The notes under the pieces were generated by a model that made no database searches, was not told the DNA's origin, and worked only from the letters and a program-made list of their open reading frames with translations. From a virus: a DNA stretch of 40,007 nucleotides. Shown in pieces: positions 1 to 25,073 of the stretch. The first letter of the stretch is position 1; every line of letters starts with the position of its first letter. The stretch is taken from IMG/VR virus record IMGVR_UViG_3300045988_181910; one strand, 5' to 3'. The translations under genes were made by a program, and so were the position numbers.

Positions 1-55
1 GATAAGTACCTTGTCGAATTTCTGTGGTTCCAAAAACGCCGAATGTACGAAAGTG
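1..55. repeat. 55-bp exact terminal direct repeat, identical to 39953-40007; consistent with assembly overlap of a circular molecule
   Basis: gataagtaccttgtcgaatttctgtggttccaaaaacgccgaatgtacgaaagtg occurs at both window ends. A minus-strand reading frame runs through the junction without a stop. Confidence 0.9.
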
Positions 56-381
56 CCGAGATCGAAATGCGCAGTATTGCGAGGCTTTACCTCACCGTTG
101 CGGGCGACAAGGTAATGGCGCGGGGACTTCAACACCTCTTTGAGCAGGGACGAACTCTCGCCCAGGTGTCCGAGGTATTTATCCATCCGGTCGTTCACCA
201 CCTTTCCGTTCACGCCCAGGCTCCGCACAGAAACCCGCGTCGGCTTGGACGGCAGATCATCGAGTCTGTGCACGAACTCCTCGAAAGGAGTATATTCCGA
301 CCGGTCGAACCGGAGCGGCGTGAGCTCTTCCGAGCAAATCGCCGCACCGGTTAAATCGGTCACATCGAAACCATAGTTCAT
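1..381 (-). CDS. 5' part (127 codons) of a RecE/YqaJ-like PD-(D/E)XK exonuclease gene; continues at 39952 down to 39206 across the circular junction
   Basis: ATG at 381..379. Manual translation: MNYGFDVTDLTGAAICSEEL...NTAHFDLGTFVHSAFLEPQKFDKVLI, open to base 1. It joins in frame to EPPANRG... of ORF 39206..39985. This ORF is absent from the ORF track because the window edge cuts it. Confidence 0.85.
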   Translation of the reverse strand, partial: MNYGFDVTDLTGAAICSEELTPLRFDRSEYTPFEEFVHRLDDLPSKPTRVSVRSLGVNGKVVNDRMDKYLGHLGESSSLLKEVLKSPRHYLVARNGEVKPRNTAHFDLGTFVHSAFLEPQKFDKVLI

Positions 382-1391: not shown

Positions 1392-1784
1392 TCAATTCAT
1401 TTTACGTTTCGATTGTTCGGAAATCAACCGGCCGGCCTCCTCGAGGCTCTCGTCGGCCGTCTTGACAGCGGAGGCTTCCTGCTCCACCCACTCGGCCAGG
1501 CGCCGGCGCGAGAAGGACAGCCGGCGGTTGCCCAGGCGTTCGTGCGGGATGGTCTTGTTGCAGGTGCGCTGATAGATCGCCTGCCGCGAGAGTGGGTAGC
1601 CGTGTTCGGCCAGGAACTCGATCGCCTGCTCGATACTCATGCGGTCGGGTTTCTCCTGCTTTTCGACGTTCAGAATGTAGTCGGCCAGCTTCGGGACGAC
1701 CCGGTCGATGGCCCGGTCCACGCCTGCGTCGATCATGCGTTGTAGCTGATCGGGGGTGACGGTGATGATCTGCTGACTTTCCAT
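1392..1784 (-). CDS. helix-turn-helix DNA-binding protein, excisionase/MerR-like (HTH_17-like)
   Basis: MSIEQAIEFLAEHGYPLSRQAIYQRTCNKTIPHERLGNRRLSFSRRRLAEWV resembles excisionase-type HTH domains. Confidence 0.7.
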   Translation of the reverse strand: MESQQIITVTPDQLQRMIDAGVDRAIDRVVPKLADYILNVEKQEKPDRMSIEQAIEFLAEHGYPLSRQAIYQRTCNKTIPHERLGNRRLSFSRRRLAEWVEQEASAVKTADESLEEAGRLISEQSKRKMN

Positions 1785-1787
1785 AGG

Positions 1788-1982
1788 TCATGCGTTTTTA
1801 CTCGTGTCGCTCGCGCTCGCGCCGGCGGCCGCCATCTCCTGCATCATATCCAGGCCGATGCGGATGCCGCCATTCACGATGTCGGTGAAGAGATAATCGT
1901 TGATCGCATCTACGGCCGCGGCACCGTAGCTGCCTCGAAGTGCTGCCTTGAGCTCCTCGATGCGTACCAGCTTCGACTTCAC
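1788..1982 (-). CDS. small hypothetical protein; start uncertain (GTG 1982 or TTG 1994, no ATG available)
   Basis: This is the GC-rich, codon-like 3' end of the 381-aa ORF 1788..2933 (..KSKLVRIEELKAALRGSYGAAAVDAINDYLFTDIVNGGIRIGLDMMQEMAAAG..). Composition changes sharply near 2000. Confidence 0.45.
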   Translation of the reverse strand: MKSKLVRIEELKAALRGSYGAAAVDAINDYLFTDIVNGGIRIGLDMMQEMAAAGASASDTSKNA

Positions 1983-2034
1983 GGCGTTATGCAATGAAGA
2001 GAGCGCGGTCCGCAGTCGGGAATAGGTAAGAGGA

Positions 2035-2299
2035 ATTTGAACCCGTTTCGTGGGTTGTACGTTGTAATCCGGGTAATAATTTGCCCGAATCACTTTTGTT
2101 AGCGTTTGCCATAGGTAACAAAAGGTGTTTGATAAGTAAATAAAAAGAGCGAGGCTCCCTTGTGTTTTGGCAAACGCACTGTACCAAAGAATGGAACAGC
2201 CCCAGGAACCCCGCTGTAATGCGGTTGAAGTATGTTTTGTGTACTTTGGACAGTACGTTTGCCAAAGACAAAGATACACAAAGTTTCTGAATCCGCAAG
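2035..2299 (-). ncRNA. structured-RNA module A (promoter, three complementary boxes, hairpins)
   Basis: Minus-strand promoter: cTTG (2296-2299) - N19 - TATCTTTG (2269-2276). Box 1 (2244-2263) is complementary to box 2 (2169-2189). A third same-sense copy lies at 2102-2112. A purine/pyrimidine hairpin plus U-tract lies at 2142-2161. The conserved 28-mer with an AACCC/GGGTT hairpin is at 2035-2062. Confidence 0.55.
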
Positions 2300-2322
2300 C
2301 GGTTCGTGAGAATAATTGATAG

Positions 2323-2595
2323 ATTTGAACCCGTTTCGTGGGTTGTACGTCGGATAATCGGCACCTTGTGCCGAACACCCAATTTTGACACCGTTTGCCA
2401 TTGTAGGTCAAAAATGGTATATAAAGAAAGGGCGCAGCCTCTCTGTTTTGGCAAACGGTCACGACTACACGGGGTAGAAGTGCTACGAGACTGCGCCCAA
2501 TTAACTTTGAGCAGCTTACTAATATGTCTTTGGTAGTCGTGTACCGACGACCGTTTGCCAACGACAAAGATACACAAAGATTCCGAATCCGCAAA
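2323..2595 (-). ncRNA. structured-RNA module B
   Basis: Minus-strand promoter: TTTG (2592-2595) - N19 - TATCTTTG (2565-2572). Box 1 (2533-2559) is complementary to box 2 (2450-2468). The third copy is at 2391-2399. The 28-mer at 2323-2350 is identical to that of module A. Confidence 0.55.
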
Positions 2596-2619
2596 TAGAT
2601 TTGCGAAATAGTTGGATGA

Positions 2620-2900
2620 ATTCGAGTGGACGCGTGTTCTGCGCGTGATGGGTGCGGAGCAGGTACTATTCTTCGCTGCTGCAACGCTTTCAGGGGACTT
2701 TGGCATAGGTCTGAAAGTTTATAAATAAATATGTAAAAAAGAGGCAGGCCCCTTTCGTAACTCGCCAAAGTCCCACATCTGCGTCTGCAAGATGTACTCG
2801 AAAGTAAGCCCGCCGTATAGCGGTATAAGTATCGTCTTATTAAAGACGAGACATGAGACTTTGGCACTTCAAATATACGCAAACCTTTTGAATTTGCAAA
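2620..2900 (-). ncRNA. structured-RNA module C (diverged paralogue)
   Basis: Minus-strand promoter: TTTG (2897-2900) - N19 - TATATTTG (2870-2877). Box 1 (2857-2865, GCCAAAGTC) is complementary to box 2 (2764-2774). The third copy is at 2694-2704. A hairpin plus U-tract lies near 2738-2758. The terminal hairpin is ACGCG/CGCGT with a 7-nt loop, at 2630-2646. Confidence 0.5.
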
Positions 2901-2955
2901 AAACTCAGCATCATATTTTGCAGCGACCGGCACGGTGATTCGGATTATTGCGGAT

Positions 2956-3717
2956 TCACTTTCCTAAGAACTTACTACGAATCAGTTCCGCGATCGTCTT
3001 GTATTCCATACGAAGATCACAGTCCGTGTACATATCTGCGATTTTAGCAATGAAATCATCGACACCGCCCGTGAAGTCGTTGTGATTTATTCTGGCTCCG
3101 ATATTGGTATCTCGAAAGGCGGTTGTACATAGACCTCTGGATCCGAATCCTGTAAAAGTTATGTAATCACCAGCTCTCGCAATTACCGCATTACCGGATA
3201 ATCGTGCATTACCAAAGACCTTTACATCGCCTGATATACATGAATCGCCTGATACTTGCGCGTCGTCCGAAACTTGTGCTTTTCCATACACACGTGCATT
3301 CTCAAATATCCGGGATTTGTCTGTTATATGAGCATGGCCGTACACCTGAGCGTGACCGAATATCTTGGCAAAGTAATCCACATGCGCGTTGCTGCAAACT
3401 TGAGCATAGCCCGCTACAGAAGCATAGTCTGTAACATACGAATTTCCAAATACCATTGCTTCCCCCGATATCTTAGCATTACCAAACACTTCCGCATTAT
3501 CAAACACCCGGGCATCATCCTGCACTTGTGCATTTCCCCATACTTTCGCATTTCCTGAAATCCACGCATCGCCGACTTGCGACAGGTTTTCTTCCGATTC
3601 GACAAAGCCACCCCGGGAGCCCTCCACCACGTTGCCAAAAGACCGAGTAGCGACAATCCGGTATAATGTGTGTCCATACCTCGAAATAGATTCAGAGGTC
3701 AATTTGTACTTTCCCAT
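2956..3717 (-). CDS. left-handed beta-helix (hexapeptide-repeat) protein, YdcK-like, paralogue 1
   Basis: About 18 consecutive [IVL]-x-G-x-A-x hexads (VFGNAKISGEAMVFGNSYV...). The N-terminus MGKYKLTSE..YRIVATRSFGNV..GGFVESEENLSQVGDAWI resembles E. coli YdcK. It shares a C-terminal domain (..DDFIAKI..EYKTIAELIRSKF) with the next two genes. Confidence 0.85.
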   Translation of the reverse strand: MGKYKLTSESISRYGHTLYRIVATRSFGNVVEGSRGGFVESEENLSQVGDAWISGNAKVWGNAQVQDDARVFDNAEVFGNAKISGEAMVFGNSYVTDYASVAGYAQVCSNAHVDYFAKIFGHAQVYGHAHITDKSRIFENARVYGKAQVSDDAQVSGDSCISGDVKVFGNARLSGNAVIARAGDYITFTGFGSRGLCTTAFRDTNIGARINHNDFTGGVDDFIAKIADMYTDCDLRMEYKTIAELIRSKFLGK

Positions 3718-4541
3718 ACTTGTTTGAGTATTGAAATATATTTGGGTTCGTATAAAAACTTATTACGAATAATCTGGACAATAGCCTTGTATTGAAGGCC
3801 CAACGGTCTGTTGCCGTAGGTCATTTCTACCATATTAAGGAATTCATCGACGGAACCGTTAAAACACCCCCATTTTATTCTGACACCGATATTGGAGTCG
3901 CGGAAAGCGATAATGCAGTTCCCATTGACATCGAATCCATTAAGCGTGACATAGTCACCCATAGCCCCGATCCGCGCATCGTGTGACAATTTCGCATCAC
4001 CAAAGACATCTGCCAAAAAACCCACGATCGCATTACCGTACACCTCCGCCTCTCCGTGCACCCGTGCATGACCGGAGATCTCGGCTAAGCCGTTTACCTT
4101 AGCGTACCCGAATACATAAGCATCATCCACCACCTTCGCATTGTCGCCGATCTCTGCATGTTGAAACACGTTCGCACGATCGCGTATTTTGGCATGACCC
4201 GATACCGATGCTTCTCCTCTCACAATCGCATTTCCCGAAACATGCGCGTATTCACACACCTCAGCCTTGCCGAAGACTCGCGCATTTTCCCAAATAATAG
4301 CATTGTCACTTACCATTGCACAACCGAATATCCGTGCATTTCCCTCGACCAATGCGTTGTCCAACACACAGGCATTACCCATCACCCACGCATCGCCGTC
4401 ATGGGACAGGTTTTCCTCTGACCTTACAAAGCCGCCCTTATCGCCTTCCTTGATGTTACTAAAAGACCGGACAGCGATAATTCGATACAATTTCTGGCCG
4501 CCCAATTCGCGACATTCGGAGGTCAATTCGTACTTCCCCAT
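3699..4541 (-). CDS. left-handed beta-helix (hexapeptide-repeat) protein, YdcK-like, paralogue 2
   Basis: Same architecture as 2956..3717. Its C-terminus reads through the duplicated about 50-nt leader (..FLYEPKYISILKQVWESTN) and overlaps the next start by 19 nt. Confidence 0.85.
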   Translation of the reverse strand: MGKYELTSECRELGGQKLYRIIAVRSFSNIKEGDKGGFVRSEENLSHDGDAWVMGNACVLDNALVEGNARIFGCAMVSDNAIIWENARVFGKAEVCEYAHVSGNAIVRGEASVSGHAKIRDRANVFQHAEIGDNAKVVDDAYVFGYAKVNGLAEISGHARVHGEAEVYGNAIVGFLADVFGDAKLSHDARIGAMGDYVTLNGFDVNGNCIIAFRDSNIGVRIKWGCFNGSVDEFLNMVEMTYGNRPLGLQYKAIVQIIRNKFLYEPKYISILKQVWESTN

Positions 4542-4581
4542 ATTTGTTTGGGTATTGAAAATATATTTGGGTTCGTATAAA

Positions 4582-4617
4582 ATTAACTAAGAAATTAACT
4601 AAGAAATTAACTAAGAA
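4582..4617. repeat. 3 x 12-nt perfect tandem repeat (attaactaagaa)
   Basis: Read directly. It spans the stop codon of gene 4611..5180 and the leader of gene 3699..4541. Confidence 0.9.
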
Positions 4618-5180
4618 AACTTATCCCTGATAAGCTCGGCGATGGCCTTATATTCCTGGCCAGCATGACTATCGCCGTGAGTTTCTTCTACTTTCGCGAT
4701 AAATTCGTCCAGCGTCCCCAAAAAACAACCACAGCGTACATATATTCCTGCTTCAAGATTGAAGAAATACGTTTTTGATCCCTGACGACTTCCTGCTCCG
4801 ATATAAGCAGCAAATGGATACCCGGCTTTCGCAACTCCGACGTTCTCAAAAAAGCACCTGTAGCCAAAGGAACAGCGCTCGCCAAAGGAGCACCACTCGC
4901 TGAAGGAACAGCGCTTGCCGAAGGAGCAGTATTCGCCAAAGGAGCAGAACTTGTCGAAGGAGCACCACTCGCCAAAGGAACAGCGCATGCCAAAGGAACA
5001 GCGCTCGCCAAAGGAGCACCACTCGCTGAAGGAGCAGTATTCGCCAAAGGAGCAGCGCTCGCTGAAGGAACAGCGCTCGCCAAAGAATTTTATTTCTGAA
5101 TAATCACCATTAGGACAATGTTTTATGCCTTTATTATCCCGAGGAATATCATTGAATTCGGCTTGTGTATAGATTTTCAT
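4611..5180 (-). CDS. Cys-rich hexapeptide-repeat protein ([GS]E[RYW]CSF x14) with the same C-terminal domain as the two YdcK-like paralogues
   Basis: GERCSFSERCSFGEYCSFSEWCSF... fits the beta-helix hexad pattern F-G-x-x-C-S. The C-terminus ..LDEFIAKVEETHG..EYKAIAELIRDKFS is shared with the paralogues. ATGA overlap with the upstream gene. Confidence 0.8.
   Translation of the reverse strand: MKIYTQAEFNDIPRDNKGIKHCPNGDYSEIKFFGERCSFSERCSFGEYCSFSEWCSFGERCSFGMRCSFGEWCSFDKFCSFGEYCSFGKRCSFSEWCSFGERCSFGYRCFFENVGVAKAGYPFAAYIGAGSRQGSKTYFFNLEAGIYVRCGCFLGTLDEFIAKVEETHGDSHAGQEYKAIAELIRDKFS
4830..5081. repeat. 14 tandem 18-nt coding repeats (hexapeptide array)
   Basis: The periodic unit ggagcagcgctcgccaaa and its variants create spurious open frames on both strands (ORFs 4688..5083 and 4915..5103). 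Confidence 0.9.
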
Positions 5181-6076: not shown

Positions 6077-6150
6077 TGGAGGGTGCAGGCGGAATCGAAC
6101 CGCCCTGCCAGGTTTTGCGGACCTGTGCCTAACCTCTCGGCCATGCACCC
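6077..6150 (-). tRNA. tRNA-Cys (anticodon GCA) with encoded CCA and an atypical C at position 33
   Basis: GGGTGCA TG GCCG AGAGGTT AGGC A CAGGT CCGCAAA ACCTG GCAG GGCGG TTCGATT CCGCC TGCACCC T CCA. All four arms pair. The variable loop is 4 nt and the discriminator is U, as expected for Cys. Confidence 0.8.
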
Positions 6151-6313
6151 GGGGACACCGTGGGCCGTCACGGATGACGGTGCCCGAACTAAACTACTAA
6201 CCCAAACTGTTTAACTAATGAGGCAGAATCCTCGCGGGATTGGGGGCCTCGAACCTCCCGACATGCGTGTGTATCATGCCTTCGCCTTTCGTCAATCCCT
6301 TCCGGCTCGATCT

Positions 6314-6595
6314 TCACATCCTGTCACTGCCGGCATCTTGGTTTGTCTTTTTCGCAAACCGACCTCTCGGGCCGCGCAGCGGCAACCGCTCGGCCATGCT
6401 ACGCCACTCTTCGGCTCGTTTGTTGGCAGCCGTGAGTTCCATTGTGAGCTGCCTTTGCTTCGCTTCGAGCTCCTCGATGCGTTTCGCTTGGCGGAAACAA
6501 AGCTCGGCGCCCTTACGTTTCTCCTCTTCCAGATCGGACACCGTCTGACGGTAGGCCTTTTTTGAGGTTAAGTCGAGCCAAAGAAATCTTTTCAT
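6314..6595 (-). CDS. small coiled-coil protein; first gene of the leftward operon
   Basis: MKRFLWLDLTSKKAYRQTVSDLEEEKRKGAELCFRQAKRIEELEAKQRQL... It starts directly at the AT-rich switch region. Confidence 0.6.
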   Translation of the reverse strand: MKRFLWLDLTSKKAYRQTVSDLEEEKRKGAELCFRQAKRIEELEAKQRQLTMELTAANKRAEEWRSMAERLPLRGPRGRFAKKTNQDAGSDRM

Positions 6596-6802
6596 ATCTT
6601 TTATTTGTTTGCGAAAGTTTCTTATGCTATATTTGTAGTATTTAAAACAAACAAATGTTTTAATATATTTGCAATATGAATTAATCGAATTATTTGTTTA
6701 TGCAAAGTAAATTAATTTTTGATTAATAACCAAAAATGCACTATACTATTATTTTATATTTTGTGAAATAATTATATACATTTTATATACAGGTGATGGC
6801 GC
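6596..6802. promoter_or_regulatory. divergent AT-rich switch region between the leftward early operon and the rightward repressor gene
   Basis: About 200 bp that is very AT-rich by eye. Plus-strand TTTG (6604-6607) - N20 - TATATTTG (6628-6635), and a second TATATTTG at 6664-6671. Genes diverge on either side. Confidence 0.65.
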
Positions 6803-9646: not shown

Positions 9647-9704
9647 TCGTGCGATTAAAAATCAGCAGATTTACAAAGACATTCGTTGTTGTAGTTGTTG
9701 GAGA

Positions 9705-9739
9705 GGTCTGCTGGCTTAATTAGCTGGCAGACCATTTTT
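9705..9739 (+). terminator. leader hairpin plus T5 tract ending immediately before the terS start codon
   Basis: GGTCTGC (9705-9711) pairs with GCAGACC (9727-9733). TTTTT is at 9735-9739 and the ATG at 9740. Confidence 0.5.
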
Positions 9740-10261
9740 ATGCCCCAAAAAAAAGTCCATAAATCAACTGAAGCCCGTGCGTGGAAGCCCCGAAGCCACT
9801 CACCGGAATCACTTTATCAGACATTTTTGGATTATGTAAAATGGGCCGAGGATAATCCTCTGTGCGATGAAGTCGTATCCAAAGGGGAAGTATTGACCCT
9901 CTCCAAAGTGCGGCCCTTGAGCTTATCCGGCTTCTGCGTGTATGCTGACATTCATATGCAGACGTTTCGCAATTACGAGAGCCGGGAGGAATACACCGCT
10001 TATTTTGACGTCTGCGCGCGGGCCCGCGCGATAATCGAAGATCATCAATTGACAGGTGCCATGGTCGGCCGCTTCAATCCGTCCATCGCGGCGCGGGTGC
10101 TTTCTCTGGCCGACAAAACCGACATCACCTCGGACGGAAAAGCGATCACGTCGGGGTCGGGAGTAACGGTCAATGTGGATAAAGATGCACTGAGCATCAT
10201 CCGCAGCGTCGGCCGCATGAGCATCCCATCGTCGGGGGACGACATCAAAACCAAAGGATGA
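9740..10261 (+). CDS. terS: terminase small subunit
   Basis: ..LSLSGFCVYADIHMQTFRNYESREEY..AIIEDHQLTGAMVGRFNPSIAARVL.. is typical of terS. It lies immediately upstream of terL. Confidence 0.8.
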   Translation: MPQKKVHKSTEARAWKPRSHSPESLYQTFLDYVKWAEDNPLCDEVVSKGEVLTLSKVRPLSLSGFCVYADIHMQTFRNYESREEYTAYFDVCARARAIIEDHQLTGAMVGRFNPSIAARVLSLADKTDITSDGKAITSGSGVTVNVDKDALSIIRSVGRMSIPSSGDDIKTKG

Positions 10262-11481
10262 TGCTGGACCCGAGAACCTATCGCGGCAAGGTATATACGG
10301 TGCTAAGGTACCTTCTTTCGCTGTATATTTTGGTGGGAGTAGTCGTTCGCGTATTTAATGAGGGCGGCTCACGGTCAGGTAAAACCTTCTGCACATTTGA
10401 CTTCCTGGTTGATATATGCATGCAGGGAGATCGGGCATGGAATATCTATGTATTTCGCAGCACTTTGCAGGACTGCAAAGAGTATTCGCTTGCGGATTTT
10501 AAGAAAAAATTAATCCTGCGAGGCGATTACGACCCCGATTGTCTCACGGGTGAGAATGTCCGACCTGACTATCGTATCGGGAAATCGGTCATCCACTTTC
10601 GGGGTCTCGATAAAATGGATCGGAAGGAGGGATATGACTGCGATATTGTCTACTTCAACGAGATGCTCGACGATATTTCGCAGTCCCAATTCGAGAACAT
10701 CACCATGCGCTGCACTACCATGATTATCGGGGACTGGAATCCCAAATACACGCAGCATTGGGCCTTCGACATGGAAGGACAGCCGGACACGTTCTTTACT
10801 CACACTACCTATCGAGATAATCCGTTCTGCCCGCTGGCCGTGCGTCGGCGTATCGAAAGCTATGAGCCTACCCCCGATAACGATGCGGCAGGAACAAGTG
10901 ACCCGTACAGATGGAACGTGTATGGTCTGGGTATGCGAGCAGCACAGGAGGGATTGATCTATCCGAACATCAACTGGATTGATTCTTTCCCGGCCGACCT
11001 GGAGCATGTGATTCTCGGGCTGGACTTCGGCTTTACGAAAGACCCGACGGCGCTTGTCCGAACCGCAGTGCGAGGGAGTGACCTGTACGCGGAAAAGCTG
11101 CTCTACTCGCCAATCGACGATCCCGAAATCCTATATCAAGCTGTAAAACCCTTTTTTACAAAAAAAACATATTGCTTCGCGGACTCAGCCGACAAGTACG
11201 CATCGAATCCGGAGGGGATGATTAATTCTCTTGTCGCTCGCGGACTGCCCGTTATGAAAGTGAATAAATATCACGGCTCGCTCGTGGACGGAATCTATTT
11301 GGTCAAGAATTTCCGGTTGAATTTCGTCCGAAGCCGCGAGTTGCAGAACGAAGTCAACGCCTATGTATGGGATTCCGTGAATGGGATCCAGCTTCTCAAA
11401 CCGAAGGACGGCAACGATCACCTGCTCGATGCGATCAGATATGATGTGATGAGTGAGCATAAGAACTTTTTGACAACATGA
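10258..11481 (+). CDS. terL: terminase large subunit
   Basis: The Walker A-like motif is NEGGSRSGKTF, and the nuclease half follows. Length and synteny fit terL. Confidence 0.9.
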   Translation: MMLDPRTYRGKVYTVLRYLLSLYILVGVVVRVFNEGGSRSGKTFCTFDFLVDICMQGDRAWNIYVFRSTLQDCKEYSLADFKKKLILRGDYDPDCLTGENVRPDYRIGKSVIHFRGLDKMDRKEGYDCDIVYFNEMLDDISQSQFENITMRCTTMIIGDWNPKYTQHWAFDMEGQPDTFFTHTTYRDNPFCPLAVRRRIESYEPTPDNDAAGTSDPYRWNVYGLGMRAAQEGLIYPNINWIDSFPADLEHVILGLDFGFTKDPTALVRTAVRGSDLYAEKLLYSPIDDPEILYQAVKPFFTKKTYCFADSADKYASNPEGMINSLVARGLPVMKVNKYHGSLVDGIYLVKNFRLNFVRSRELQNEVNAYVWDSVNGIQLLKPKDGNDHLLDAIRYDVMSEHKNFLTT

Positions 11482-12716
11482 GTTTTTTCGGAATAAGCAT
11501 ACCTGCGCGAACCCGCAAAATAGAGAGTGAACCTGCAGTGGCCCCCCAAAGCTCGACACTCCACTTCACGCTTAACGAACTGCGGGATATTCTGGGCACT
11601 TCGTCTCGTAATATCAACTGTGCAACTGTAGAGGGACAGATCCAGGCCATGAAAGCCTGTCCGGTACTGTCGAGCGTCATCATTAAAAAGGTCTGCGCTA
11701 TCAAGAACGCGAAGTACTGGGCCGTTGGCAATGACGACAATCCGAAAGAGATTCCCTCCAACATGCGCCGCATACTTCATCCAAACCCCGGACAATATTT
11801 GGGGGACTTTGTGGGAATGGTTGAATTATACATGCAGATGCACGGTGTAGCCTACATCTACTGTGAGCGGCCGGCCGGTATTCGTAATGACTTCGACCTG
11901 TACGTCGTACCGAATCGAATGGTTGTTACCAACAGAGTTCTCAATGCCACGCCGTCGTTCAATCCTGATGCTGACGTGGAAAGCTATACCATCAACTTCG
12001 ACAGTGGAGCGACCTTGAAGGTGAGTCCACAGGATATGTACCTCGTTCGGGATGTTGCATCATCCATCGGCACCGGAACTTCACGCATGGTGCCTTTGCA
12101 GAAGCCGATAAATACCTTCATTGCCGCATACGAATCAGTGAATGAGCTGATGGTGAATCGCGGTATGCTGGGAATCATTTCGCTGACGTCCAATAATCCG
12201 ATTCTCAATATGCCCAATGTGCCGGTAACCCAGGAGGAGCGAGATAATATTCGGACCGCACTGCAGAATTACGGAACTATGTCGGATCAGATGAAGCATC
12301 TGATTACGAACTACAACGTTGGCTATACTGCTGTATCCTCGACTATAACAGACCTTGGGCTGGTAGATGTTCAGCAAAATTGTCGAAAAGATATTGCTGA
12401 CCAATACCAGGTGCCGAGTGTTTTGATCGATGTTGAAAAAAGCAAATATGCAAATGCTTCGGAATCCAAGAAGTTTCTATACAACGACGCGATCATTCCG
12501 GAGGCCAATCACATTCTCGATGTCCTCAACCGCATATACGGCTTCGAGGAAGTGCGGGTAGTGCCTATGTTCGATCACCTCGAAATCTTCCAGCAGGCGA
12601 ACCGGGAACAGATGGCTGCGTCGGCAAGTCTGGCAAATGCCCTCAACACGATGTTACAGAACGGGGCCCTCTCGCGTGAAGAGGTCAGGGATGAATGGAT
12701 GAAGTACACAGTATAA
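11478..12716 (+). CDS. portal protein
   Basis: A 412-aa ORF directly after terL and before the protease and capsid genes. Starts and stops overlap the neighbouring genes. Confidence 0.85.
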   Translation: MSFFGISIPARTRKIESEPAVAPQSSTLHFTLNELRDILGTSSRNINCATVEGQIQAMKACPVLSSVIIKKVCAIKNAKYWAVGNDDNPKEIPSNMRRILHPNPGQYLGDFVGMVELYMQMHGVAYIYCERPAGIRNDFDLYVVPNRMVVTNRVLNATPSFNPDADVESYTINFDSGATLKVSPQDMYLVRDVASSIGTGTSRMVPLQKPINTFIAAYESVNELMVNRGMLGIISLTSNNPILNMPNVPVTQEERDNIRTALQNYGTMSDQMKHLITNYNVGYTAVSSTITDLGLVDVQQNCRKDIADQYQVPSVLIDVEKSKYANASESKKFLYNDAIIPEANHILDVLNRIYGFEEVRVVPMFDHLEIFQQANREQMAASASLANALNTMLQNGALSREEVRDEWMKYTV

Positions 12717-13435
12717 ATCGTAGTTATATGAATGGATATAATATAAAATCTCTTGATGCTCACATTGAGAATATAAGGCCTGAAGGACTGGTGACCATCG
12801 CCATATCCGCCTTCGACGTTGAGGATCATGCGCACGATATCGTTCGGAAGGGGGCTTTTGCAGGAACGTTCGCCCGGGATTCGGCCAATATAAAGCATGT
12901 TGTCGATCACATTCACGATGTGGCTCATATTGTCGGGACGCCACAGCGCATGGAAGAGACCGACCGATATGCGATCATTGAAAGTAAGCTTATCCTTGAT
13001 AAATCCATCGGTCACGACCTCTTCGTAACCTACAAACATCTGCATGATGAGGGAAAAGCAATGGAGCACTCCTATGCTTACCGCACGTTGAGGCGCAACG
13101 AGAATAAGCAAATCAAGGGAGAGGATATAGCCGAGCTCGAAATGCTCGAATACAGCACCGTCTTTCGTGGTTGCAACCCGCTTACGCCTACGCTCGACGT
13201 GAAAGGACTCTACACCATCGATGACTGCGTGTCTTATATCGACGACCTGGAGCGCATGCTGCGCAAATGCGACTTTTCGGACAAAGGCGGCCGACGCATC
13301 GAGCAGGTTGTGTCACGTTTGGAGGGGGTATTAACTGATTTCAAGGGCAGATCGCTTCCTGCCGGGGAAGAAGAGCGCCGCAAGGCATTTAACGATGAGC
13401 TGCGAGCAGCTTTCAAGGATTCTCTATTTAACTAA
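12695..13435 (+). CDS. prohead (HK97-type) maturation protease; alternative start at 12728
   Basis: Its position is between portal and capsid. The N-terminal segment reads ..VTIAISAFDVEDHAHDIVRKGAFAGTF.. Confidence 0.75.
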   Translation: MDEVHSINRSYMNGYNIKSLDAHIENIRPEGLVTIAISAFDVEDHAHDIVRKGAFAGTFARDSANIKHVVDHIHDVAHIVGTPQRMEETDRYAIIESKLILDKSIGHDLFVTYKHLHDEGKAMEHSYAYRTLRRNENKQIKGEDIAELEMLEYSTVFRGCNPLTPTLDVKGLYTIDDCVSYIDDLERMLRKCDFSDKGGRRIEQVVSRLEGVLTDFKGRSLPAGEEERRKAFNDELRAAFKDSLFN

Positions 13436-13448
13436 TATTCTTAAATTT

Positions 13449-14648
13449 ATGGAACAAGAAATCAAAAAGGAGCTGAGCGAAATGCTCAACGAATTCAAAA
13501 AAGGGCTGGTAACGGATGCTGAAATGAAATCCTTCGTGGATGCTGCGGTGGCCCGTGCCGGCAATGCGGAGGAGATCGAGCAATTGAAGTCGGCCATCAA
13601 GGAACAGGGGATCGTCATTTCCCGCTTTGAAAAGTCGGGAGGCGTTCCTAAGAATGACTTTCAGGAGCAGATCAAGGCATTTGTCGAAAGCGAGGACAAC
13701 CGTCGAACGATCAAATCGAACGGAAAGGTCGAGATTTTCCTCAAAATGAAGGCCGACGCAGCTCCCATGTACACATCGACCACCGGGAAAATCCCCATCA
13801 ACGTATTCAATACGGAAGTCGTGCCCGGTATCGGGTCTGCGCCGCAGGAGCCCAACGCCATTTTCCCGCGCCTTTTCAAAGGCATGGCTACGTCTGAGAT
13901 CATCCGCTACGTGAATCGCGGAACGATCAGTGGGGGTGCGGCGTTCATCGCAGAGGGGCAAGTTAAGCCGCTGATGAGCTGGGATTACACTCAGGGCATG
14001 AGCACCGCTGCTAAGGTCGCCGTTAAAACTAAAATCTCGACGGAAATGCTCAATGACTTCCCCTACATCATTTCGGAAATCAATACGCTTATGCGTGATG
14101 ACCTGATGCAGGAGGTTGATAAGCAGCTTTTGATCGGCGACGGATCGAGCTACAAGCTGAAAGGTATCCTTACCGATGCCGGCGGGTATATCGGGAGTGA
14201 TCTGGACGGCTCTGTCGAGCGTGCAAACGAGGCTGATGCTGTGCGTGCTTCCATGCTTGCAATGAGGATGCTGAATTTCACGCCCAACACACTTTTTATT
14301 AATCCCACGGAAAAGGCAGGTATTGACCTCACTAAGGACGCGTCCGGCCGTTACATGAGCGACGAATTGCTCAAAATAATTGCGGGTGTGTCGATTGTCG
14401 AAACCACGCGTATCGATCCCGGCAAATTCCTCCTGATGGACACCAGCAAGTGGGTTGTCAAAGTACTGGAAAACCTGCGCCTCGAATCGGGATTAGTGAA
14501 CGATGACTTCGAGAAGAACATGGTGACCTATATCGCCGAGATGCGTCTGCATTCCTATCAGAATACTATCGACGCCGGATCGGTCATTTATGATTCGTTC
14601 GATACGGTCATTGCGGCCCTCAACAAGACGACGCAGGCTGCGGCGTAA
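13449..14648 (+). CDS. major capsid protein (HK97 fold) with an N-terminal delta/scaffold-like coiled coil
   Basis: Start MEQEIKKELSEMLNEFKKG... About 400 aa, located after the protease. Confidence 0.85.
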   Translation: MEQEIKKELSEMLNEFKKGLVTDAEMKSFVDAAVARAGNAEEIEQLKSAIKEQGIVISRFEKSGGVPKNDFQEQIKAFVESEDNRRTIKSNGKVEIFLKMKADAAPMYTSTTGKIPINVFNTEVVPGIGSAPQEPNAIFPRLFKGMATSEIIRYVNRGTISGGAAFIAEGQVKPLMSWDYTQGMSTAAKVAVKTKISTEMLNDFPYIISEINTLMRDDLMQEVDKQLLIGDGSSYKLKGILTDAGGYIGSDLDGSVERANEADAVRASMLAMRMLNFTPNTLFINPTEKAGIDLTKDASGRYMSDELLKIIAGVSIVETTRIDPGKFLLMDTSKWVVKVLENLRLESGLVNDDFEKNMVTYIAEMRLHSYQNTIDAGSVIYDSFDTVIAALNKTTQAAA

Positions 14649-14667
14649 CCATCAAATATCCGAAGAT

Positions 14668-14841
14668 ATGACAAAGAACATCGAAGGAAGAGAAGTACAA
14701 GAGGTTCGTTTCAGCGAACGTGTGTGGATCGTAGGCACTGGCCGCGATCCGCGAATGCCCAAAATGGCGGAATATTCCGTACATCCGCTCCTCGCCGAGA
14801 AGTTGGTGAAAAGCAATAAGGCGACTTTCAAGGGCAAGTGA
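14668..14841 (+). CDS. small hypothetical protein (57 aa), possibly a head decoration or connector accessory
   Basis: ORF 14590..14841 trimmed to ATG 14668, which lies after the capsid stop. Confidence 0.5.
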   Translation: MTKNIEGREVQEVRFSERVWIVGTGRDPRMPKMAEYSVHPLLAEKLVKSNKATFKGK

Positions 14842-14845
14842 CAAC

Positions 14846-14874
14846 ATGCGGGCAGGCCTTGCCCCTGCCCGCAT
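14846..14874 (+). terminator. 11-bp GC-rich stem-loop after the capsid block, without a U-tract
   Basis: ATGCGGGCAGG ccttgcc CCTGCCCGCAT. Confidence 0.4.
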
Positions 14875-14888
14875 TAATCCGCTAATCA

Positions 14889-15368
14889 ATGTTAATCGAC
14901 TATTCGTATTTCAGCAATCCAATGACTCGGATCGCGGGCATAGACCAGCGAAGCGACGGTCAAGCGTCTTCGCTGTCTAAAAAATTGCAGGATGAAATAG
15001 AAGCCTACATTAGATTCTATGAGCCCAAATTCCTCCGCATGATGCTGGGGAAGGAACTGGCTGAAAAAATTGACGAGCGTCCCGATATTGTGGCAATGCT
15101 GGTCAATCTGGCCGACCGGTCATCAGTGATTGCGAAATACGTCTATTTCTATTATCAAAGAGATCATGCAACCTTCAATACGATCGCCGGTGAGAAGCTC
15201 AAGATAACCGAGAGCAGCAAGCCGGTATCCGCACAAACACGACTGATATCTGTCTGGAATAACATGGTCGATGAGTGCCGACAGATTGCCGCCTTGATGG
15301 ATCCCTATGCTGCCGCGCCCGATTATGGTAGCGCGATCTTTGAAAAAATCAATATGTACGGACTATGA
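14889..15368 (+). CDS. virion protein, putative head-tail connector
   Basis: Called from position in the late operon and ATGA coupling to the next gene. Confidence 0.65.
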   Translation: MLIDYSYFSNPMTRIAGIDQRSDGQASSLSKKLQDEIEAYIRFYEPKFLRMMLGKELAEKIDERPDIVAMLVNLADRSSVIAKYVYFYYQRDHATFNTIAGEKLKITESSKPVSAQTRLISVWNNMVDECRQIAALMDPYAAAPDYGSAIFEKINMYGL

Positions 15369-15970
15369 CCATCACCCCGCGACATACCGTCAAAGAGATC
15401 TGCACCGGCAATGCGACTCTGTTCGCTATGGGCAATGAGAGGATTTTTGCCGAAATAAAAGCACTGCCGAAAGTGGAGGAGTTGAGGCTGCGGAGAGGGA
15501 GGCGTTATTCTAAAGATCAGGTTATTTCGGCAAGAAGTCTCTCGGGTATCACTATGCTCGAACTCGACATCTTGAATAAAACCGATGATAAGAGATACTT
15601 TTTCAAGCTTTTGAGCGTCATGCTCAACATTTCGGAGAATGAGGTAGGCAACCTGCGTTTTATCCGCGCTTATCGCTACTTCATCGAATGCATAGACCAA
15701 TTGGGAAAGATCGCCAAGAAGTGGGCCGAGCTCGAAATGCCCATGACAGCCGAAGAGCAGCAGACGCATGTGAAGCAGCCAAATCGTGGGATGGTTTCGG
15801 TATGCAGGCAGTATGCACAGTTGATGGAGGGATCGGTACGCTTCGATGATGTGTGGAATATGCCCTGGGGCATTGTCTATGAAGCTTTCGAGGCCGAGCG
15901 CTGCAAGAATCTCCAAATGCGCAAAATGCAGGCTTTGCAAAATGCCAAAATTAAAAGCGACCGCCGATGA
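15365..15970 (+). CDS. hypothetical virion-module protein
   Basis: A translationally coupled ORF in the late operon. Confidence 0.65.
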   Translation: MTITPRHTVKEICTGNATLFAMGNERIFAEIKALPKVEELRLRRGRRYSKDQVISARSLSGITMLELDILNKTDDKRYFFKLLSVMLNISENEVGNLRFIRAYRYFIECIDQLGKIAKKWAELEMPMTAEEQQTHVKQPNRGMVSVCRQYAQLMEGSVRFDDVWNMPWGIVYEAFEAERCKNLQMRKMQALQNAKIKSDRR

Positions 15971-16374
15971 ATCTAAACAATACCATAGCGAATTGCGCCA
16001 AAGAAAGCGGCCTGCACACGTATTTCTACGTACGTCGTGGAGAAGTGAACGTCCGACTGGATGACGCATATGACTATCCGGTACTGCTGCGCATGTTTGA
16101 GGAGCGTATCACACCTGGCCGGTTGAATAATCAGCGGCGCCGTACTACCACGCTTTTTTTCTGCGATTCGCTCGGCCTCGCAGAGCCGGATACGGCGACA
16201 GAGGTATTGCCGATCATTTCCAAGATGGAGGATCGTGCTTTCGGTTTCTTCGAGCGACTTCGCGCGGCCGGTGTCGAGGTAGATATTGCCTACCTGGAAC
16301 CTTTTGCCGAGAAATTCGACGTCCTCTGCGCGGGCGTTAGATGCGAGGTGACCATGACCTACAATCAATGCTGA
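15967..16374 (+). CDS. hypothetical virion-module protein (neck or tail-completion size class)
   Basis: A coupled ORF in the late operon. Confidence 0.65.
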   Translation: MNLNNTIANCAKESGLHTYFYVRRGEVNVRLDDAYDYPVLLRMFEERITPGRLNNQRRRTTTLFFCDSLGLAEPDTATEVLPIISKMEDRAFGFFERLRAAGVEVDIAYLEPFAEKFDVLCAGVRCEVTMTYNQC

Positions 16375-16375
16375 T

Positions 16376-16954
16376 ATGGACGGCATTGAGCAGATACAAT
16401 CCTTTTTCAGCCCGGAAAAGTTCGTCACCATATGCCGTGAAGAATTCGAGTCCGCGGCCGAGCATATTCGCGAAAATATCGCTACCAAGCGCACGAACAG
16501 CGGGCGCCCCGTGAACTCCCTTGGGCTGCCCGAACAAACGACGGGCGAGACAGCTGCCAGCATACGAGTACTTTTCGAGTCGGACGAAAAAGGGTTCTCG
16601 GCTTCGCTTGTCGGCCGGAAAGGAATTTGGGGTATTGATAAAGGGCGCTCGCCCTCCCAGGTTCAGGAACAATTTTCGAGTTTCACGGACTGTGTAGAGC
16701 AGATGCGACGATGGGCACGTGCGAAGGAATCCCGTTACGGATTACCGGCCGGCTCGGTCAATCCATATAGTGTGGCCACAGGCCTGTGGGAGCGCGGGAC
16801 CATACTTTACCGGGAAGGGGGTGGCACGGAGATTCTTTACGATACAATCCCTCCGGTTGTAGATAATATCAGCCGGCGACTGAGCGAGCTTATCGACCAG
16901 GGAGTTTTTCAATTATTGAATTTATCGATCGAAAATGAGGACATCGACTTTTAA
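16376..16954 (+). CDS. hypothetical virion-module protein
   Basis: A coupled ORF in the late operon. Confidence 0.65.
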   Translation: MDGIEQIQSFFSPEKFVTICREEFESAAEHIRENIATKRTNSGRPVNSLGLPEQTTGETAASIRVLFESDEKGFSASLVGRKGIWGIDKGRSPSQVQEQFSSFTDCVEQMRRWARAKESRYGLPAGSVNPYSVATGLWERGTILYREGGGTEILYDTIPPVVDNISRRLSELIDQGVFQLLNLSIENEDIDF

Positions 16955-17951
16955 TAGCCTTACATTTGTATATCCGAATGAAATCTGTTTTGCTCGCGGG
17001 AATAATTTTGTGAGCGTCTCGCAAAATAATGCGGTAGATACGACAGTTTCGCTCGAAGTTCTTGGCGAGGGGAAAAGGATTCGACTCATACGAACGATCC
17101 GCAAGGATATGACCCCTGCAAAGGTAGTCTTTCCTCTGGATTCAATTCTCGAAACGCTCGCCGGTCAAACCGTGACGATCGAAGTACTGATCGGGGACGA
17201 CGATTCCATTATGAGTAGCACCCTCGTCGTGCTTGACGGAGCATCTGAGCGCGAGGTACTCAATGCAGGGGAATCTAATGATCCCGAAGGTGTGCCCTTC
17301 CCTCAGCCGGCGTTATTCCCAATTTATCCCAACTTTCTACACGAAATTACGCTCTTCACCGGATTACTTGACCCGAACAACGACATGGAATATTTCATGC
17401 AATTTCCATGGACGCCAGAATGGCTGGAGCTCGCGAGCACTCCCGGCTATCCTTTTTTGAAAACCGAAACCTCCAACATTGATTTCGATTTCGCACCGGC
17501 CGCCACATCCCTCAATGTTGTAGTTTTTATCGGACCGACAGAAATTGCATTTTTCAGGTTCCCGGTATTTGTTGATAAATGTGAGGATGGCATGTTCGTT
17601 CGTTGGACGGATTCACGAGGCATTCCGTGCATGTATCGCTTTTCGGTAGAACTATCCACGGAAGAAACGACCATCGATTCAGAATATATCCGGCTTGATG
17701 ACGACCTGCGTCCTTACCGGTGGCTGACCAAGACCTCGCACACCCGCTACACCCTCCATTCCCGCAAGGTAGAGCCCCGAATGTATGCCTACTGTCGCTC
17801 GGTACTGACGGGCCGCAACGTCGAATATTTCGACAACACAACTAAGAAATGGCGTCGCTGCATCATCGATGAAGGTGAAGCGGAGGATACGGGGAAGCCC
17901 ATGCAGGACCTGGTCGTGGAGCTCGTCAAAGAAAATCTGATCCTGCCATGA
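16935..17951 (+). CDS. hypothetical virion structural protein (338 aa)
   Basis: A coupled ORF in the late operon. Confidence 0.7.
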   Translation: MRTSTFNSLTFVYPNEICFARGNNFVSVSQNNAVDTTVSLEVLGEGKRIRLIRTIRKDMTPAKVVFPLDSILETLAGQTVTIEVLIGDDDSIMSSTLVVLDGASEREVLNAGESNDPEGVPFPQPALFPIYPNFLHEITLFTGLLDPNNDMEYFMQFPWTPEWLELASTPGYPFLKTETSNIDFDFAPAATSLNVVVFIGPTEIAFFRFPVFVDKCEDGMFVRWTDSRGIPCMYRFSVELSTEETTIDSEYIRLDDDLRPYRWLTKTSHTRYTLHSRKVEPRMYAYCRSVLTGRNVEYFDNTTKKWRRCIIDEGEAEDTGKPMQDLVVELVKENLILP

Positions 17952-19891: not shown

Positions 19892-19893
19892 TT

Positions 19894-22425: not shown

Positions 22426-22457
22426 TTTGGATAATGCGCCGGACGTCAGAATCTTTG
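22426..22457 (+). promoter_or_regulatory. second copy of the TTTG-N20-AATCTTTG candidate late promoter
   Basis: TTTG is at 22426-22429 and AATCTTTG at 22450-22457, 28 nt before ATG 22486. Confidence 0.4.
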
Positions 22458-22485
22458 CGAATGATAACATCTAAACATTAATAAT

Positions 22486-23097
22486 ATGGCATTGAATTCA
22501 TGTATCTACACACTGGACCAGGACATTCTCAATGACTGCAACGTGCGTTACGGAAAGGGGGCAGAGAAAAGGGCATTCATCTTTAGCCGAAGTGCTATTG
22601 ACAACGATGCAACTGTGTTTGATGCGAGCACAGGAATTGTTACGAAATTGGTGCTCAAAAGCGGCAAGCGTGGCTTCAGGATGAACATGCCATCGACCAC
22701 TCCCTTTACGGGACTAACCAATGAGGATCAGAACGTGACGATCGGCATGTCGTTCAACAAGACTGTGCCGGTCATTCTGCTGCCGAACAGCCCGACCAGT
22801 TCGCAGATCATTCGTGCGCTCAAGTCGGACGACTATGTTATCGTTTGGGAGGCGCGCGTAAAAGGAGAAAAAGGCGAGCAGGCTTTTCCTGCTGTAGGAA
22901 TGGAAACGGGCTGCAAAGGATCGGACGCCACTTTTGAAGCCTACAACGACGATACGCAGGGCGGATGGTCGATAAATATGATTGAAGAGGGTGCGACTAT
23001 TCCTCAAGTTTTCGTAGCATATTCTGAGGGCTACAACGCTACATTGACAGCTCTCGAATCAATGACAGTTCCTATTGAAGATGGCGTTTCGCTCTGA
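22486..23097 (+). CDS. tail protein (tube or distal-tail candidate)
   Basis: A 203-aa beta-rich ORF directly after the tape measure gene. Confidence 0.6.
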   Translation: MALNSCIYTLDQDILNDCNVRYGKGAEKRAFIFSRSAIDNDATVFDASTGIVTKLVLKSGKRGFRMNMPSTTPFTGLTNEDQNVTIGMSFNKTVPVILLPNSPTSSQIIRALKSDDYVIVWEARVKGEKGEQAFPAVGMETGCKGSDATFEAYNDDTQGGWSINMIEEGATIPQVFVAYSEGYNATLTALESMTVPIEDGVSL

Positions 23098-23474
23098 TGA
23101 CCAGGGAGTGGTATGAAGAGAAGCTGCGCGAAGCTTTCCTGACCATATCCGACCAGGAGACAATAAGGGCCCAGTACCAAACCGTCACAGGAGAATCCTT
23201 CGAGGTTAGTTTCCGGCCAAATTGCCCCAATCGTTTCAGAGATGCCATAACATTAATATTAATCAAGATGAAACAGGAACAGAACACGAGTCGCGGAGGC
23301 TATCTGCTCAAACAGGGCGTTGTATTCAAATACAAAGGCAAGATTATCACCAACGTGAATCTCACTGCGGCTTCGGCCGAGTGGTATATCGCTCAGAATC
23401 TCGATCACCGCGACGACTTCGAGGAGTTGGGACGAGATTATGACAGCTTCGGGCAGACAGAAACGATGAAGTGA
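23097..23474 (+). CDS. hypothetical tail-module protein
   Basis: A coupled ORF. Confidence 0.6.
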   Translation: MTREWYEEKLREAFLTISDQETIRAQYQTVTGESFEVSFRPNCPNRFRDAITLILIKMKQEQNTSRGGYLLKQGVVFKYKGKIITNVNLTAASAEWYIAQNLDHRDDFEELGRDYDSFGQTETMK

Positions 23475-25069: not shown

Positions 25070-25073
25070 TTGT

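Follow-up and report, generated by a model that had tools for sequence, protein, structure and literature searches.

The 40,007-nucleotide (nt) viral sequence IMGVR_UViG_3300045988_181910 from IMG/VR, which is referred to in its full length as the window, carries a tandem array of three homologous units on its minus strand at positions 2030-2935. These units, or modules, are designated A (2030-2325), B (2318-2620) and C (2610-2935). Each is about 290 nt long, the repeat families that they contain are spaced 281-305 nt apart, and their mean column identity is 68%. The array is part of a long minus-strand operon that runs from about position 6170 through position 1 and continues from position 40007. 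The order of genes in this operon is a GerE-type regulator, three beta-solenoid paralogues, the array, a 64-amino-acid (aa) gene, a helix-turn-helix (HTH) protein, an exonuclease, a replication initiator and a methylase, which places the array directly ahead of the replication and recombination genes. The 64-aa gene (1788-1982, minus strand, GTG start) is the first conserved gene past the array and heads the HTH/exonuclease/replication-initiator operon. The original prediction for this region was that the three units are promoter-driven structured RNAs on the minus strand with triple complementary boxes, and all six of the features that it listed were found where it had placed them.

All of the following features are located on the minus strand, along which the modules are read in the order C, B, A. 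The proposed promoter layout, in which TTTG or TTG is followed by 19 nt (N19) and a -7 box, was seen directly in the sequence of each module. The candidate promoter of module C (2870-2900) consists of TTTG (2897-2900), N19 and TATATTTG (2870-2877), that of module B (2565-2595) of TTTG (2592-2595), N19 and TATCTTTG (2565-2572), and that of module A (2269-2298) of TTG (2296-2298), N19 and TATCTTTG (2269-2276). The -7 box of Bacteroidota sigmaA promoters, TAnnTTTG, occupies positions -12 to -5 (PMC9723704). The sequences of A, B and C agree with such promoters, in which a spacing of about 19-21 nt separates a TTTG near -33 from the TAnnTTTG at -12 to -5, and a matching layout is found in nearly all of the modules from relatives. 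The promoter is followed by box1, which consists of GTG and CCAAAGTCTC in module C (2855-2867, approximately at the predicted transcription start), of TTG and GCAAACGGT in module B (2550-2561), and of TTG and GCAAACGT in module A (2255-2265), where it is in frame with the module A ATG. Box2, which is antisense to box1 and box3, is GGGACTTTGGC in module C (2764-2774), ACCGTTTGCCA in module B (2449-2459) and GCGTTTGCCA in module A (2168-2177).

Between box2 and box3 each module contains a hairpin with a U-tract, as had been described. This predicted terminator has the form GAAAGGGG-CCTG-CCTC followed by T6 in module C (2735-2756), AGAGAGG-CTGCGC-CCTTTCT followed by a T-tract in module B (2423-2444), and AAGGGAGC-CTC-GCTCTTTT in module A (2142-2161). 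All three terminator hairpins are present in the minimum-energy folds and also in the consensus fold, and a strict consensus terminator scan was passed by module A only. Three further hairpins, H1, H2 and H3, follow. The stem of H1 is CTTTCAG/CTGAAAG in module C (2687-2717), TTTTGAC/GTCAAAA in module B (2383-2413) and CTTTTGTTA/TAACAAAAG in module A (2093-2124). Its loop holds an ATG and box3, at 2704-2706 and 2694-2704 (GCCAAAGTCCC) in C, at 2399-2401 and 2390-2400 (TGGCAAACGGT) in B, and at 2110-2112 and 2102-2111 (TGGCAAACGC) in A. H2 is a predicted fold at 2654-2687, 2350-2382 and 2064-2092 in C, B and A, respectively. H3 has a stem of 5 base pairs (bp) and a 7-nt loop in all three modules (ACGCG-CAGAACA-CGCGT at 2630-2646 in C, and AACCC-ACGAAAC-GGGTT at 2328-2344 in B and at 2040-2056 in A), and in A and B it lies inside an identical 28-mer, both as claimed. 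The view that H3 marks the end of a module did not hold; H1, H2 and H3 form the 5' coding region of an open reading frame (ORF) that starts at box3, or a truncated copy of that region.

An inverted-repeat search recovered the box1 and box2 arms in every module, with arms of 22 nt that are 86% complementary in A, 24 nt and 79% in B, and 17 nt and 82% in C. The stem in C is longer than the 9-10 bp initially proposed. Box3 is an exact complement of box2 over 10 nt in A and 11 nt in B and C, so that the third, same-sense box was correctly identified. The RNAs that extend from the promoter to the U-tract fold into a long hairpin of about 100 nt formed by box1 and box2, followed by the terminator hairpin. 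The fold energies for A, B and C were -50.3, -51.0 and -52.9 kcal/mol with z-scores of -6.6, -4.4 and -6.3, and none of 200 dinucleotide shuffles folded as well.

Hundreds of assemblies contain this phage, and in one 2.6-Mb bacterial contig it is integrated; a prophage copy is located in contig JBKULG010000001.1 of GCA_046954255.1. Nine other assemblies of this phage that were fetched are 100% identical over 978 nt of the region, and the covariation evidence was therefore drawn from more distant relatives. These were reached using a 61%-identical homologue of the downstream HTH protein, using the 'proteins' that gene callers predict across such arrays, and using two DNA patterns. In total, about 27 distinct modules were obtained from phage contigs, and the covariation alignment comprises 17 distinct modules; the set is modest in size and several of its members are closely related. 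In this alignment, the box1:box2 helix is 98.9% paired with 8 of 11 pairs compensatory, and the box2:box3 helix is likewise 98.9% paired, with changes on both sides in 8 of 11 pairs. When the partners were slid by 1-3 columns as a control, only 29-42% of the positions paired, and the observed covariation score was reached by 0 of 500 shuffles. Orthologous B-type hairpins with near-identical scaffolds carry GGCAAACGG, GCGAAACGG, GCCAAACCG or GCGAACCAG as their box, and the changes occur in box1, box2 and box3 together. Variability is higher in the boxes than in the 3' arm and terminator next to them (p = 0.008), yet it does not exceed that of the whole module. The fold z-scores and, decisively, the covariation in relatives confirm that the three homologous modules are real and beyond chance. 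The compensatory variation of the three boxes is genuine, and the further copies added further compensatory changes.

Comparison of the modules showed that the boxes are start-codon regions. Box3 consists of the ATG and codons 2-4 of the downstream ORF, with the ATG first in every module. In relatives this ATG opens real genes, namely ORFs of 66, 99 and 107 aa, and the stop codon of the 66-aa ORF (MANVDKSG...ILNLSDREIAIRLQSLSLDDLEKLAPLLRVL...) overlaps the start of the next gene as ATGA. Box1 is an NTG copy of box3 that lies 2-3 nt past the -7 box. The box2:box3 helix consists of 10-13 contiguous Watson-Crick pairs with zero G-U pairs in all modules, while the box1:box2 helix is equally long or longer but contains up to three G-U pairs. 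The G-U pairs in the box1:box2 helix and in the helix formed by element X (see below) indicate that the molecule is RNA and fix its strand, as these positions would be mismatches on the other strand or in DNA. H1, H2 and H3 lie within the first approximately 30 codons of the box3 ORF, and the H1 loop of 9-17 nt displays the ATG and box3. The pairing of H2 is kept through synonymous compensatory changes, such as GGT..GCA to GGC..GCG between contigs L013 and L021. The upstream modules of arrays hold just the 5' part of the ORF, which ends in ...ESILNLSDREIA and is followed by the next promoter.

In the window, the ORF that starts at the box3 ATG of module A has 41 codons (1987-2112), and its TAA (1987-1989) sits 4 nt before the GTG of the next gene at 1982; the third module of contig L011 is arranged likewise. 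The ORF from the box3 ATG of module B has 100 codons (2099-2401), crosses the promoter, hairpin and terminator of module A, and terminates 8 nt beyond the ATG of that module. In module C, the ATG at 2706 opens an ORF of 239 codons that ends at the same TAA, and in the same frame, as the module A ORF. A stop-free frame extends over the whole array (1788-2933) and holds the box1 GTG of C (2865-2867) and the box1 TTG of B (2559-2561); the 64-aa gene is read in this 381-aa frame as well. Counted as far as the terminator's end, the 27 modules contain 3 stops in the box1 frame and 72 and 54 stops in the other two. All 3 stops fall in one divergent module, and in the remaining 26 of the 27 the box1 frame passes through hairpin and terminator without a stop. 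The array of the window contains 19 stops compared to 39.6 +/- 4.3 in dinucleotide shuffles, and its longest open run is 324 codons compared to a shuffle mean of 96; likewise in five other arrays. The variable sites are distributed over the three codon positions as 11/11/17, and none of these positions varies in the 3' half of the hairpin. These results agree with the original prediction that the 381-aa through-ORF is not conserved as a protein, but not with its dismissal of the frame, which is under selection to stay open even though its product is not conserved. The mechanism therefore probably involves ribosomes that translate through the modules. The hypothetical proteins of 214-381 aa that gene callers annotate over these regions would, as the same data indicate, not be conserved protein genes.

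A further element, designated X, lies just past the apex of the hairpin in every module and complements the 5' arm, the loop and the first 3'-arm bases of its own terminator. In module C, X (GGCGGGCTTACTTTCG, 2799-2814) complements the 5' half and loop of terminator C with a duplex energy of -24.3 kcal/mol (z = -3.0), and the X helix is the minimum-energy fold once the 5' arm is masked. In module B, GGGCGCAGTCTC (2487-2498) complements GAGGCTGCGCCC (-27.0 kcal/mol, z = -4.6), in module A, AGCGGGGTTCCT (2204-2215) complements GGGAGCCTCGCT (-24.1 kcal/mol, z = -4.3), and GACGTGTCCCC/GGGGGACACGTC is another example. The duplex of X with the 5' part of the terminator has an energy of -21 to -29 kcal/mol and a z-score of -2.5 to -7.7 in 17 of 17 modules, and 12 of 12 ungapped positions pair in 13 of the 17, G-U pairs included. 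When the first 30-45 nt of the RNA were masked, the X helix displaced the terminator in the minimum-energy fold of 7 out of 7 modules, and masking of the first 16 nt resulted in an 11-bp box2:box3 helix in 4 of the 7. Such energy-based switching of folds is suggestive and not proof. The two parts of an attenuator, a predicted terminator in the leader and a mutually exclusive helix that takes up part of that terminator, are both present in the modules.

The modules behave as exchangeable cassettes among related phages. Single cassettes head several short early operons in relatives, and contig L038 (126-3833) contains three paralogous units that each consist of a cassette, a 66-83-aa gene and an approximately 175-aa gene, with a different box specificity in each unit. 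Contigs L013 and L019 have identical upstream promoters and ORFs that are identical from codon 4, with unrelated hairpins in between; their boxes are TGCGAGACAGCG and TGGCAAACAGCG, respectively, and the proteins accordingly begin with MRD.. in one and MAN.. in the other. The number of cassettes before the same gene also differs, with one in L034 and two in L040 and L019. The second cassette of L013 (2150-2215) has a natural deletion of X, the 3' arm, box2, the terminator and the 5' arm of H1, which joins the promoter and box1 directly to the ATG of the 66-aa gene. This deletion could be an escape (constitutive) mutant or an assembly artefact.

Taken together, these data lead us to favor, with moderate confidence, a model in which the modules are translation-dependent attenuator cassettes with an anti-start-codon switch. 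Each module would be a self-contained cassette for the RNA-level control of early genes in a temperate Bacteroidota phage. Transcription would start from the sigmaA-type promoter at box1 or within 1-2 nt of it. By default, with no ribosome on the leader, the long hairpin would close, X would be held in its apex, and the terminator would form, so that a hairpin RNA of about 125-140 nt would be released. A ribosome on the 5' arm, which may have started at box1 or arrived in that frame from upstream, would free X to pair with the 5' half of the terminator, and this antiterminator would allow the polymerase to continue into the box3 ORF. Thanks to the stop-free frames, the ribosome would be able to cross the terminators that follow and would arrive in frame in the next real gene, or only a few nucleotides from where that gene starts. 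Box2 would serve as an anti-start-codon sequence that masks either box1 or box3, so that the leader start and the main start would be closed alternately. In this array, the main ORFs of C and B would be truncated 5' remnants that run through the following cassette or cassettes, and cassette A would lead into the 41-codon ORF that ends 4 nt before the first GTG of the replication/recombination operon. The direction of regulation and the use of box1 as a start codon are what we infer from this arrangement. The interpretation that was offered with the original prediction, an RNA switch, decoy or immunity element, is thus partly supported; the start-codon boxes, the open box1 frame, the antiterminator X, the asymmetry of the two box2 helices and the exchange of cassettes had been missed.

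The attenuator model explains why box1 lies at the 5' end, why the box1 frame is open and why X is present. Several points weigh against it. The promoters, transcription starts, terminators and translation of the modules are predictions. The alternative fold is less stable than the closed hairpin by about 20 kcal/mol. The box1 codon is GTG or TTG more commonly than ATG, and in four of the 27 modules it is TCG. Since the -7 box occupies -12 to -5, box1 would lie at the extreme 5' end of the predicted transcript and the predicted start would fall on the T or G of the box1 NTG, and the cassette's own transcripts may therefore be without a complete box1 start codon; the box1 frame may instead serve ribosomes that come from upstream. 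The one module with stops in the leader frame is from L032, a metagenome-assembled genome of Bacteroides sp. Attenuation alone needs no match of box3 to box2, it leaves the swapping of whole specificities unexplained, and the model contains no route by which box2 is freed from box1 to meet box3, in cis or in trans. Diversifying selection on the boxes is without support as their variability does not exceed that of the whole module, and the boxes within one genome are not fully orthogonal, as those of A and B have 9 nt in common.

The perfect box2:box3 match and the swapped specificities fit a trans role of the terminated or processed leader. As an added layer to attenuation, box1 and box3, whether on the same genome or on an incoming one, might be targeted in trans by the presumably abundant terminated leader RNA or by a processed form with a free box2, which would resemble the action of P4 CI RNA on seqA and seqC. 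IsrK, which acts on its own read-through messenger RNA, is another precedent. A real trans (immunity) layer is possible, and we put it forward only tentatively. A further and rather unlikely proposal is that the cassettes are sequence-programmable RNA immunity units, in which the terminated leader silences in trans those genomes that have a matching box1 and box3. If this were true, phages would escape by swapping the three boxes together, a stacked C-B-A array would represent antisense specificities that exclude several heteroimmune relatives, and the gut Bacteroidota virome would have a protein-free, P4-like immunity that operates via start-codon mimicry.

A different account would make the modules stand-alone small-RNA genes of the P4 or P1 immunity type, or decoys, that act in trans and whose terminated RNA of about 130 nt is the sole functional product. 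This RNA would repress the box3 starts, and box1 on nascent leaders, and the open frame and X would be incidental. Such genes would account for the sense/antisense/sense layout around the terminator, as in P4, for the perfect 10-13-nt box2:box3 seed, for the swapping and stacking of cassettes among near-identical phages, for the upstream cassettes that are still intact despite their truncated ORFs, and for boxes that are more variable than the neighboring scaffold. However, box2 is buried in a predicted 11-16-bp helix with box1 and no flanking toehold is visible, the stop-free box1 frame and the conserved X:terminator alternative are left unexplained, and when the rest of the 40-kb genome was searched for additional sequences that the A, B and C boxes could target, only chance-level near matches came up. 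Overall, we consider this account unlikely. The truncated 5' ORF remnants in B and C, and junctions at a recurrent recombination point (...ESILNLSDREIA, then the next promoter), could also mean that the upstream modules are decaying by-products of the duplication of a promoter and gene 5' end, in which the pairings are inherited and only a general promoter function matters. This is very unlikely given that the truncated modules retain a perfect box2:box3 match, terminators, X and H1-H3, that simultaneous three-site compensatory changes recur in relatives, and that the depletion of stops goes well beyond the dinucleotide expectation.

It is extremely improbable that a functional protein is the product of the 381-aa through-ORF, or of ORFs starting at box1, and that the hairpins are incidental to it. 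The frame is open across the whole array here and in relatives, and gene callers do report proteins of 214-381 aa, but the spacings of 296 and 305 nt put A and B in different frames, third codon positions are not favored among the variable sites, and the 3' half does not vary at any codon position. In addition, the translations are rich in Cys, Trp and Arg, have no family hits and match other module translations only, and length changes among relatives shift the frame while the nucleotide pairing is kept. The boxes might alternatively be DNA sites, either operators or iterons for a DNA-binding protein or parts of a cruciform or origin structure; an iteron-like cluster of GAGTCGTTTGCCAA is found in the unrelated viral contig L001, and TTGGCAAA is nearly palindromic. 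Against this, the helices depend on G-U pairs that exist in RNA of this strand only, the promoter, U-tracts and ATG confer polarity, and a single protein could not read all of the boxes because their sequences differ within one genome. This explanation is accordingly given hardly any weight. Identities as attC-like integron sites (the R'/R'' consensus is absent), as a retron msr/msd (there is no reverse transcriptase nearby) and as a type III toxIN-like repeat array were rejected from a reading of the sequence only. The modules are also not transfer RNA (tRNA) or transfer-messenger RNA according to ARAGORN and the Rfam tRNA model, and the sole tRNA is the tRNA-Cys at 6077-6150.

The window represents a circularly permuted complete genome of a temperate phage of about 40 kb. 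Contig L002 aligns to window positions 4915-1 and then onward to 40007-37929 with a 55-nt overlap, and the exonuclease (DUF3799) gene accordingly straddles both ends of the window (1-60 and 39950-40007). The terminase, portal, major head and tape-measure genes are on the plus strand (9695-26424), and the integrase is at 26421-27647. A phage tRNA-Cys gene with the anticodon GCA (6077-6150, minus strand) is located at the head of the early operon, where it is overlapped by the call of a 124-aa ORF. In contig L019, a match to the tRNA model (4399-4559) spans 161 nt, which implies a tRNA with an insertion of about 90 nt just upstream of the L019 array. The G+C content changes from 56-61% at 1000-2000 to 44-46% at 2000-4000, with the step exactly at the boundary between the array and the 64-aa gene, which suggests a mosaic junction at about position 2000.

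Three paralogous genes lie directly upstream of the array (2956-3717, 3699-4541 and 4611-5180). Two of them are beta-solenoid genes (phrog_7964/5070, YdcK-type repeats), and the third, which shares the C-terminal domain only, has a Cys-rich CSFGE(R/W/Y)-type repeat; similar genes are found downstream of cassettes in relatives. No relatives of the beta-solenoid protein were found in IMG/VR. Where the upstream beta-solenoid gene has its stop codon, the sequence TGAATCCGCAA (2948-2958) exactly matches the reverse complement of TTGCGGATTCA, a motif in the promoter spacers of A (2288-2298, 11 nt) and B (2585-2594, 10 nt); the chance expectation is about 0.1. For the genes downstream of the cassettes in relatives, PHROG and Pfam searches gave no functional annotation. 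In L038, the 66-83-aa proteins share the motif ...ILNLS.(R/E)EI...LAP.LR.L and the approximately 175-aa proteins begin with M(D/E)NLL.C.GR.F..., none with a family annotation.

Among the phage records of INPHARED, nothing resembled the array even distantly, and none was close to the 17 kb of the genome that served as a second query. In IMG/VR, neither the 28-mer nor the promoter consensus had a hit as an exact pattern, and the B-type core pattern had none in GTDB species genomes. Contig L031 (Algibacter) was rejected as a module as its match is a chance one inside a coding region. Contig L001 (IMGVR_UViG_3300014059_000133) matched the pattern TTGGCAAACG..CGTTTGCCAA but was rejected as a relative; it contains an unrelated iteron- or operator-like cluster at 3950-4200, with at least 8 copies of GAGTCGTTTGCCAA in both orientations in a single intergenic region, and shares the TTGGCAAACG core by chance. 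Contig L032 (JAVBUC010000055.1, the Bacteroides sp. genome mentioned above) has a divergent cassette at 6470-6740 in minus orientation, with the box CGCCAAAGA and the H3 loop ACGAAAC. It is the only direct hint of the host genus. From the promoter type, the integrated copy and this one module, we infer that the host belongs to the gut Bacteroidota.

An Rfam search produced nothing at the gathering threshold in the window, which agrees with the original statement that the modules are not a named RNA family, and at E <= 10 in region 1700-3100 there was no C4/CI match. The C4/CI covariance model had no match in the window at the gathering threshold, nor at E <= 1 in the loci of four relatives. 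Weak hits to NPPA-AS1_3 and STnc50 (opposite strand) in the window, and to mir-1271 and plastid untranslated-region families in relatives, are far below their gathering scores and were attributed to chance. No description of such modules was found in the literature on Bacteroides phages. With no Rfam match and no paper found, this putative RNA control cassette appears to be previously undescribed.

Gene control in the temperate phages of gut Bacteroidota is almost unknown, and the cassettes described here are compact elements with strong comparative support that combine a predicted promoter, a probably translation-sensitive terminator/antiterminator and an antisense box matching two start regions, and that are reused ahead of several early operons. 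Shine-Dalgarno sites are little used in Bacteroidota. Should the mechanism be correct, nature would have a new RNA-switch design in a phylum without Shine-Dalgarno-driven initiation and Hfq. The cassettes could also provide an RNA-only determinant of immunity or heteroimmunity beyond the enterobacterial P1 and P4 examples, and possibly orthogonal, sequence-programmable parts for the engineering of Bacteroides.

Among known systems, the immunity of satellite phage P4 was one analogy drawn in the original prediction. In P4, the leader carries an antisense box between two same-sense boxes (the seqA/seqB/seqC layout, to which the arrangement around the terminator here corresponds), and the repressor RNA comes from the leader itself (PMC4825925). 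The modules are similar to P4 CI RNA in having a promoter-proximal antisense box flanked by two complementary boxes of the same sense on the same strand, in the association of the pairing with predicted premature termination ahead of replication genes, and in the specificity that the box sequence would set. In contrast to the P4 box, which is exposed on a processed RNA of about 79 nt, box2 is paired with box1 in a long hairpin. The modules differ further in that boxes 1 and 3 are start codons with codons 2-4, that there is an explicit antiterminator and a stop-free leader frame, that several cassettes occur in tandem in one genome, and that the host phylum is Bacteroidota. RNAs of the C4 antisense group mature to about 77-79 nt through processing by RNase P. 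As in that group, the antisense box of the modules has upstream and downstream complements on the same strand, with both helices 98.9% paired; however, box2 is not exposed and is paired with box1 in the minimum-energy and consensus folds. With no covariance-model match and with this predicted pairing, the cassettes appear to be outside the C4/CI RNA family.

The c4 RNA of the P1/P7 immI operon is encoded on the same strand as its target, upstream of it in a shared operon, and prevents expression of the icd/ant genes that follow (PMC8201110). The modules share this position of a same-strand antisense RNA upstream of its target. Complementary boxes are also present upstream of c4, and heteroimmunity between P1 and P7 rests on compensatory box differences. 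There is no homology of sequence or structure to c4, as judged by the absence of an Rfam hit, and the antisense boxes of c4 are located in loops and target the ribosome-binding site, whereas those of the modules would target the start codon and the first codons. The IsrK RNA of the Salmonella prophage Gifsy-1 offers another parallel; there, one promoter produces a terminated short RNA and a read-through messenger RNA (mRNA). Through the sequence that the two have in common, the short RNA can act on the long one and switch alternative helices, which control the translation of a short ORF with coupling to the gene that follows (PMC4825925). The modules would likewise produce a small RNA and an mRNA from a single promoter by termination or read-through; in contrast, IsrK activates translation and belongs to the C4-like structural group, and the direction of its control, its partners and its structures are known and not, as here, deduced. 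Similar to the translation-coupled attenuators of the trp and pyrBI types, the modules contain predicted, mutually exclusive terminator and antiterminator helices, and a ribosome on the upstream segment would decide between them. In pyrBI-type attenuators the leader ORF spans the terminator, and the open box1 frame of the modules runs through the terminator as well. Compared to the enterobacterial attenuators, the cassettes show no evident run of regulatory codons, an antisense box further downstream would mask the putative leader start at the 5' end, the start region recurs at the head of the regulated ORF, and the box sequences are hyper-diverse and exchangeable.

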